A program made the translations under genes and the position numbers. Shown here in pieces: positions 1-294 of a stretch of DNA of 13,352 nucleotides. The stretch comes from a virus. Its lineage: Duplodnaviria > Heunggongvirae > Uroviricota > Caudoviricetes. Positions within the stretch are counted from its first letter, which is position 1. Each line of letters opens with the position of its first letter. Location: the IMG/VR virus record IMGVR_UViG_2667527789_000010; one strand, written 5' to 3'. The notes beneath the pieces were generated by a model. It did not search any database and was not told the DNA's origin. It saw only the letters and a program-made list of their open reading frames with translations.

Positions 1-73
1 CATTCTGGCTTTCGATAACCATACGAACGGCCCGCTGACGGACCTCAGGGGAAAAGCGCGTATTTTTAGTCAT
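1..73 (-). CDS. IS3-family transposase OrfA, N-terminal 24 codons only (partial, continues beyond window start)
   Basis: ATG at 71-73 (minus strand) preceded by AGAGAGGTAAACAGG. Translation MTKNTRFSPEVRQRAVRMVIESQN matches the HTH-containing N-terminus of IS3-group OrfA proteins as I recall them. Confidence 0.6.
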   Translation of the reverse strand, partial: MTKNTRFSPEVRQRAVRMVIESQN

Positions 74-127
74 CCTGTTTACCTCTCTCTCAAGGAGTTT
101 AGTCTCCAGGATTCCCGGGGCGATTCA
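1..127 (-). mobile_element. IS3-family insertion sequence, terminal fragment (inverted-repeat end plus 5' end of orfA); IS629/IS1203-like
   Basis: Minus strand reads TGAATCGCCCCGGGAATCCTGGAGACTAAACTCC...AGGTAAACAGG-ATG: an IS3-type terminus beginning with TGA, followed by an SD and an ORF starting MTKNTRFSPEVRQRAVRMVIESQN, which I recall as the N-terminus of IS629/IS1203-type OrfA. The element runs off the window start. Family assignment is from memory, not a search. Confidence 0.6.
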
Positions 128-294
128 GTTCGCCCCTGTTCAATTATTCGAGCAGCAAATTGAGCATTTACCTCTTGTGATAATGCGGCAGCATCACGTT
201 CCGCCCATTTTTTTTGCCATCCTCTGTCGCTCCAGACATTTCCGACGATAAATCCTGACAACACGAGAAAAATCACCATGAATATCTGATTCAC
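128..294 (-). pseudogene. Rz-like i-spanin gene truncated by the IS insertion
   Basis: GTG start at 292-294 overlaps the endolysin stop (GTGA). The N-terminus has a TM segment ([16 protein letters not shown]) then a charged helical region ([30 protein letters not shown]), typical of Rz. After about 55 native codons the frame runs into the IS terminus at 127 and ends in IS-derived sequence. The downstream half, where an embedded Rz1 would lie, is displaced. Confidence 0.5.

Follow-up and report, generated by a model that had tools for sequence, protein, structure and literature searches.

The spanin gene rzpQ, last in the holin-ydfR-endolysin-spanin cassette of a lambdoid prophage in an E. coli-type genome, has in all likelihood been split by the simple insertion of an IS element in a lysogen. 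The window (the whole stretch of DNA analysed, 13,352 nts in length) begins within that element, and its first 294 nts confirm that a shortened Rz-type i-spanin gene is joined directly to the end of an IS3-family element. There is nothing unusual in this disruption of a prophage gene: the element, the gene and the mechanism are all known. The features on which this rests are:

1–127, minus strand: left end of a 1310-bp IS3-family element (ISEc25-like, an IS1203/IS629 relative), 100% identical to 7 E. coli records
128–294, minus strand: native 5′ part of rzpQ (i-spanin, DUF2514), the first 167 nts of the gene, identical to intact rzpQ (L001, 2671–3168)
79–294, minus strand: chimeric ORF rzpQ′::IS, 71 aa made up of 56 RzpQ and 15 IS-encoded residues, with its TAA stop at 81–79
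128–130, minus strand: predicted 3-bp target-site duplication, AAC, whose second copy would fall outside the window

The breakpoint in rzpQ

On its minus strand the window follows the intact rzpQ of E. coli O26:H11 11368 base for base from 294 to 127, and the alignment finds no similarity beyond. The stretch amounts to 56 rzpQ codons. As the third base of codon 56 is at the same time the first T of the IS, the count of about 55 native codons given in a preliminary description of this DNA was right. From 127 downward the window reads TGAATCGCCCCGGGAATCC...; where intact rzpQ alleles, whose product is 165 aa, continue past the breakpoint with TATAGCCCGTGATGAGG..., it has (T)GAATCGCCCCGGGAATCCTGGAG.... 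With so sharp a breakpoint, and perfect matches elsewhere for the sequence on either side of it, chance resemblance is excluded.

The idea that TGAATCGCC... belongs to the native coding region of Rz, with no mobile element involved, is already refuted by comparison with intact homologues, which continue past the breakpoint with unrelated sequence, and retains a negligible probability. In hundreds of complete genomes the match to the window, at about 100%, starts only at base 127, and the first 127 nts of the window have identical counterparts in IS3-family transposase loci that lie at unrelated chromosomal and plasmid positions. What had been described from the letters alone, an IS3-type terminus interrupting an Rz-like frame that starts over the endolysin stop, is present in all its elements.

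Native rzpQ sequence begins with a GTG start at 294–292, in a GTGA overlap with the TGA stop of the endolysin gene rrrQ (293–291), and encodes an N-terminal transmembrane segment (residues 4–22) and about 34 periplasmic residues. The truncated product is still recognised as Pfam DUF2514 (E = 2.6e-12). The stub keeps its membrane anchor, and 109 of the 165 residues are gone. No gene on record has exactly the 71-aa chimeric product, or its 66-aa version from an ATG start, as its own product. The exact junction 37-mer has no match in the genome, viral or metagenome contig collections, and the rzpQ/IS junction occurs in none of 5,426 complete E. coli genomes; it could for that reason serve as a strain marker.

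An IS part that is short and lies at the very edge of the window is what would be seen if 127 nts of IS had been wrongly joined to rzpQ at the end of a contig, the real rzpQ being intact, and 127 would be a common maximal k-mer of assemblers. Such an assembly artefact is most improbable. The position of the break is precisely the first base of the IS, whose limits were established independently from another genome, and a random mis-join would not produce such agreement; a De Bruijn contig that runs out in a repeat normally has a true, read-supported junction there. In short-read assemblers 127 is the usual upper limit of the k-mer. Given a fragment of exactly this length, the window probably starts where a contig ended, within a multi-copy repeat, and the genome would then contain more than one copy of the IS.

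The native sequence runs ...GCGAAC up to the insertion point and TATAGCC after it. The prediction that AAC has been duplicated comes from the behaviour of the identical IS at its other site (L003), where the duplication is also of 3 bp (TAT). With simple insertion, a 1310-bp ISEc25-like IS (IS1203/IS629/IS3411 group, with an ALIL pseudoknot) would have transposed into rzpQ of a Qin-position lambdoid prophage, entering after nucleotide 167 of the gene and pointing the same way as the lysis genes. Beyond the complete IS, flanked by the AAC duplication, would then come the distal part of rzpQ with the embedded rzoQ.

As the window ends 127 nts into the IS, what lies farther left is out of view, and there is a small chance that the junction belongs to a larger lesion. 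In that case an IS-mediated rearrangement, either adjacent deletion or IS-IS recombination, would have deleted or inverted the distal rzpQ/rzoQ, and a larger part of the prophage might be affected too. A fragment of exactly 127 nts is what would be expected of a short-read contig that stopped in a multi-copy repeat, and more than one IS copy would permit recombination between them. Also, the predicted distal junction (...GGGGCGGTTCA-AAC-TATAGCCCGTG; ...CCGGGGCGGTTCA AAC TATAGCCCGTGATG) is absent from the collections searched, a duplication of 0–6 bp being allowed for. However, the proximal junction is equally absent from those collections, so the missing distal junction says nothing. Counting against rearrangement are the flank, essentially identical to that of uninterrupted relatives, which points to a very young event, and the clean insertion with 3-bp duplication that the same IS made at another site in this prophage. 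Simple insertion remains the preferred reading.

The IS3-family element and its name

The IS end in the window begins TGAATCGCCCCGG at 127 (127–115). Compared with IS3-family element ends, window 1–127 is 100% identical (E = 3e-59) to those in seven complete E. coli records, with 0 differences in 127 nts, and the seven loci sit at unrelated positions on chromosomes and plasmids. The ATG of orfA is at 73–71, and the first 24 codons (MTKNTRFSPEVRQRAVRMVIESQN), which reach the edge of the window, are identical to the start of the 108-aa OrfA of a full-length copy.

That full-length copy is in strain FHI_NMBU_11 (L003), where positions 14756–14882 are identical to window 1–127 and form the end of a complete 1310-bp element. 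Its limits were fixed by comparing the L003 insertion with the window's own empty site at 7696–7698. It has TG...CA ends, starts with TGAATCGCCCCGG, ends with CCGGGGCGGTTCA and is flanked by a 3-bp TAT duplication; in its terminal inverted repeats 12 of the 13 terminal bases are complementary. The TG end is directly seen in the window, and the CA end is known from the L003 copy, whose 127-nt end is the same. From this comparison the IS boundary in the window is placed at base 127, where one T serves both as the native base and as the start of the IS, and AAC (128–130) should be the duplicated target.

While 24 codons of orfA are in the window, the organisation of orfA, orfB and the frameshift site is read from the L003 copy. 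There OrfA (108 aa) has an HTH_Tnp_1 domain and OrfB (299 aa) has HTH_21 and rve domains (rve, E = 4e-26) and scores 314 bits with NCBIfam transpos_IS3, the cut-off being 160. An A6 slippery run is present at the orfA stop, with an ALIL frameshift pseudoknot (Rfam RF01497) at 95 bits, and the PGAP annotation of the full-length element includes ‘programmed frameshift’. The copy in the window is expected to be complete in the same way.

By ISfinder convention, isoforms share at least about 95% nucleotide identity. IS629, IS1203 and IS3411, which had been put forward as candidates, are relatives only and were rejected as the element itself, the identity being about 83.5%: over its full 1310 nts it is 83–84% identical (83.3–83.8%) to IS1203-labelled copies and to copies in O157. 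It is a rare element. Seven records hold a copy at 99% identity or above, and thousands hold elements of the IS1203/IS629 type at 80–90%. The closest labelled relative is ISEc25, with 98.6% identity over 795 nts to a truncated copy on plasmid pUMNK88_K88, the name being a PGAP label and not an ISfinder reference. That copy, annotated ‘IS3-like element ISEc25 family transposase’, is an incomplete pseudogene, in contrast to the element in L003. As judged from this match, ISEc25 is a lead to the identity of the element rather than a verified assignment.

With the IS1203/IS629/IS3411 group the element, as read from its full-length copy, shares its length of 1310 bp, an orfA followed by −1 frameshifting into orfB, the ALIL pseudoknot, the 3-bp duplication and TG...CA ends starting TGAA(C/T)CGCCCCGG. 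The identity to IS1203-labelled copies of only 83–84% nevertheless sets it apart as a distinct and much rarer element.

The spanin pair, the lysis cassette and the expected phenotype

Intact RzpQ is assigned to PHROG 312, ‘Rz-like spanin’ (E = 4e-57). Its N-terminal hydrophobic segment, residues 4–22, has a mean Kyte-Doolittle value of 2.18, and its gene directly follows the endolysin gene. In the intact allele, rzoQ is an 84-aa ORF in the +1 frame, occupying nucleotides 194–448 of the 498 of rzpQ; its product has the lipobox L-T-S-C (Cys23) and a Pro-rich stretch and belongs to PHROG 11621, also ‘Rz-like spanin’ (E = 1.7e-8). By family assignment and architecture, rzpQ and rzoQ appear to be an embedded two-component spanin pair. 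The embedding fits the usual spanin layout (PMC6139136). No experimental work on RzpQ or RzoQ was found in the literature.

The start of rzoQ, at nucleotide 194 of rzpQ, is 26 nts beyond the breakpoint in the intact allele, and the whole of rzoQ is therefore displaced to the far side of the IS. This bears out the earlier proposal that the Rz N-terminus has been cut off from its periplasmic domain and from Rz1.

The resemblance to lambda Rz/Rz1 is in the position of the gene at the end of the cassette, in the N-terminal membrane anchor of the i-spanin and in the embedding of the o-spanin lipoprotein gene, which is in the +1 frame and extends from 0.39 to 0.90 of the i-spanin length (PMC6139136). 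RzpQ is, however, of a different sequence family (DUF2514, PHROG 312), RzoQ has 84 aa where the lambda counterpart has 60, and this cassette, unlike that of lambda, has a phage-21-type holin and an extra gene, ydfR. The other genes of the cassette and the antiterminator gene upstream of it are:

291–824, minus strand: rrrQ endolysin, 177 aa, intact (Pfam Phage_lysozyme, E = 1e-23; PHROG 7, endolysin; rrrQ lysozyme in near-identical relatives)
821–1132, minus strand: ydfR, DUF1327, 103 aa, intact (Pfam DUF1327, E = 1e-53; annotation of relatives)
1137–1352, minus strand: essD holin of the phage 21 S family, 71 aa, intact (Pfam Phage_holin_2_1, E = 5e-34; PHROG holin families; annotation)
2998–3750, minus strand: ydfT, coding for the Q-type antiterminator and lying upstream of the lysis cassette (annotated ‘antitermination protein’ in strain 190, a relative with 1 mismatch in 13,226 nts)

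Nonsense mutations throughout lambda Rz, even at residue 152 of 153, are lysis-defective, and when either spanin subunit is defective the outcome is spherical cells bounded by the outer membrane (PMC5295617). The truncation of rzpQ is expected to mimic these nonsense alleles (PMC5295617). Spanins are required in the canonical-holin and pinholin/SAR-endolysin pathways alike (PMC6139136), and their requirement for outer-membrane disruption is known for both lambda and phage 21 (PMC5295617, PMC6139136). By analogy with lambda Rz, the periplasmic part missing from the 71-aa anchored stub would be the one that has to extend to the outer-membrane lipoprotein and bind it. An induced cell would still be killed, and its wall degraded, by the holin and endolysin, and its outer membrane would be neither fused nor ruptured; the products would be fragile spherical cells with progeny trapped inside unless sheared. 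In lambda, shaking the culture hides a spanin defect unless divalent cations have been supplied (PMC6139136).

On this comparison, the step of lysis that acts on the outer membrane has very likely been lost. The preliminary description had the lysis cassette as disabled; that can be kept for the last step, at the outer membrane, but not for the holin and endolysin, both of whose genes are intact. For practical purposes the spanin is to be annotated as a pseudogene, and the prophage is not to be counted as lysis-competent.

Near-identical relatives of the window carry the RefSeq names essD, ydfR, rrrQ and rzpQ, and have their lambdoid prophage between rspB and ydfJ, which is the Qin position. 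Three RNA features in the window are the usual Qin-type moron and regulatory set:

2091–2483, minus strand: cspA-type thermoregulator leader upstream of cspB (Rfam, 159 bits)
5778–5952, minus strand: sok antitoxin RNA beside hokD (Rfam, 113 bits)
12246–12297, plus strand: DicF sRNA upstream of dicB (Rfam, 72.5 bits)

Gene names and order in near-identical relatives, the chromosomal neighbourhood and the DicF and sok RNAs all liken this prophage to K-12 Qin (essQ-ydfR-rrrQ-rzpQ/rzoQ, cspB/F/I, dicB/dicF, hokD). Qin of K-12 is a deleted remnant, whereas the closest relatives have the prophage at full length, including genes for terminase, portal, capsid, tail and tail fibres.

Age of the insertion and other IS insertions in the prophage

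Strain 190, in which rzpQ is intact, differs from the window by 1 mismatch in 13,226 nts, this sole difference being at window position 13103 (A here, C there). Such near-identity in the backbone, with none of the 127 nts of IS differing from other copies, means that the insertion is very recent. Past rzpQ, the prophage of strain 190 goes on through cspI, gnsB and the terminase, portal, capsid, tail, tape-measure, J and tail-fibre genes to ydfJ. With so close an uninterrupted relative carrying a full-length prophage, the term cryptic, applied to this one in the preliminary description, is unsupported and is not justified from the window. The suggestion of domestication made alongside it also finds no support, as the loss of the spanin does not spare an induced cell: the holin and endolysin still kill it. 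There being no obvious benefit to the host, neutral decay is the better reading, and the insertion, recent and strain-specific, is most simply taken as a neutral decay step in a lysogen.

The prophage backbone already had small lesions besides the IS. In the PGAP annotation of strain 190, cspF and ydfB are partial pseudogenes and an exonuclease gene is frameshifted (window 2621–2823, 11410–11511 and 12942 onward, all on the plus strand). The finding has little weight beyond this strain, being one very recent inactivating event in a near-identical and apparently full-length lambdoid prophage; within those bounds it is a clean example of the onset of prophage decay and of IS activity in a lineage.

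On the minus strand the stop of the chimeric frame (TAA, 81–79) is 5 nts upstream of the orfA ATG (73–71), and the full-length IS copy showed no terminator-like site on this strand. ydfT is presumed to drive late transcription into rzpQ′ and the IS. Since the IS is oriented like the lysis genes, Q-antiterminated late transcription would run into the transposase gene, and transposase expression would, given such read-through into orfA, which is plausible, be coupled to induction. A further step, that prophage induction could turn on IS transposition and so carry the IS into packaged or neighbouring DNA, is a speculative and rather doubtful one.

A 595-aa DUF4209/DUF7380 ORF is intact at window 6458–8245 (plus strand) and matches PDC-S39, a PADLOC candidate anti-phage defence gene (E = 3e-102). 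In FHI_NMBU_11, CFIAFB20190167 and JNEC-KY202 the DUF4209 gene of the same prophage appears to be interrupted by an IS3-family element. The first of these three is the one examined in detail (L003), and the element in its DUF4209 gene has the identical 127-nt end found in the window and the TAT duplication. A local hop of the IS from that gene into rzpQ was considered and rejected: site 7696–7698 in the window is clean and empty, and the insertions are independent. Taken together, the insertions in rzpQ and in the DUF4209 gene show this rare IS to have hit the prophage at least twice, independently.

Full-coverage BLAST of the window has misleading top matches: in FHI_NMBU_11, and apparently in the two other strains, it is the DUF4209 gene that contains the identical IS, and SW071614 has a different IS in ydfR. 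The SW071614 element (L002, 3939–5248) is of the IS3 family but of IS1203/IS629 type and 83.6% identical to the one in rzpQ. With this separate IS in its ydfR, the lysis cassette has been struck repeatedly by IS elements.
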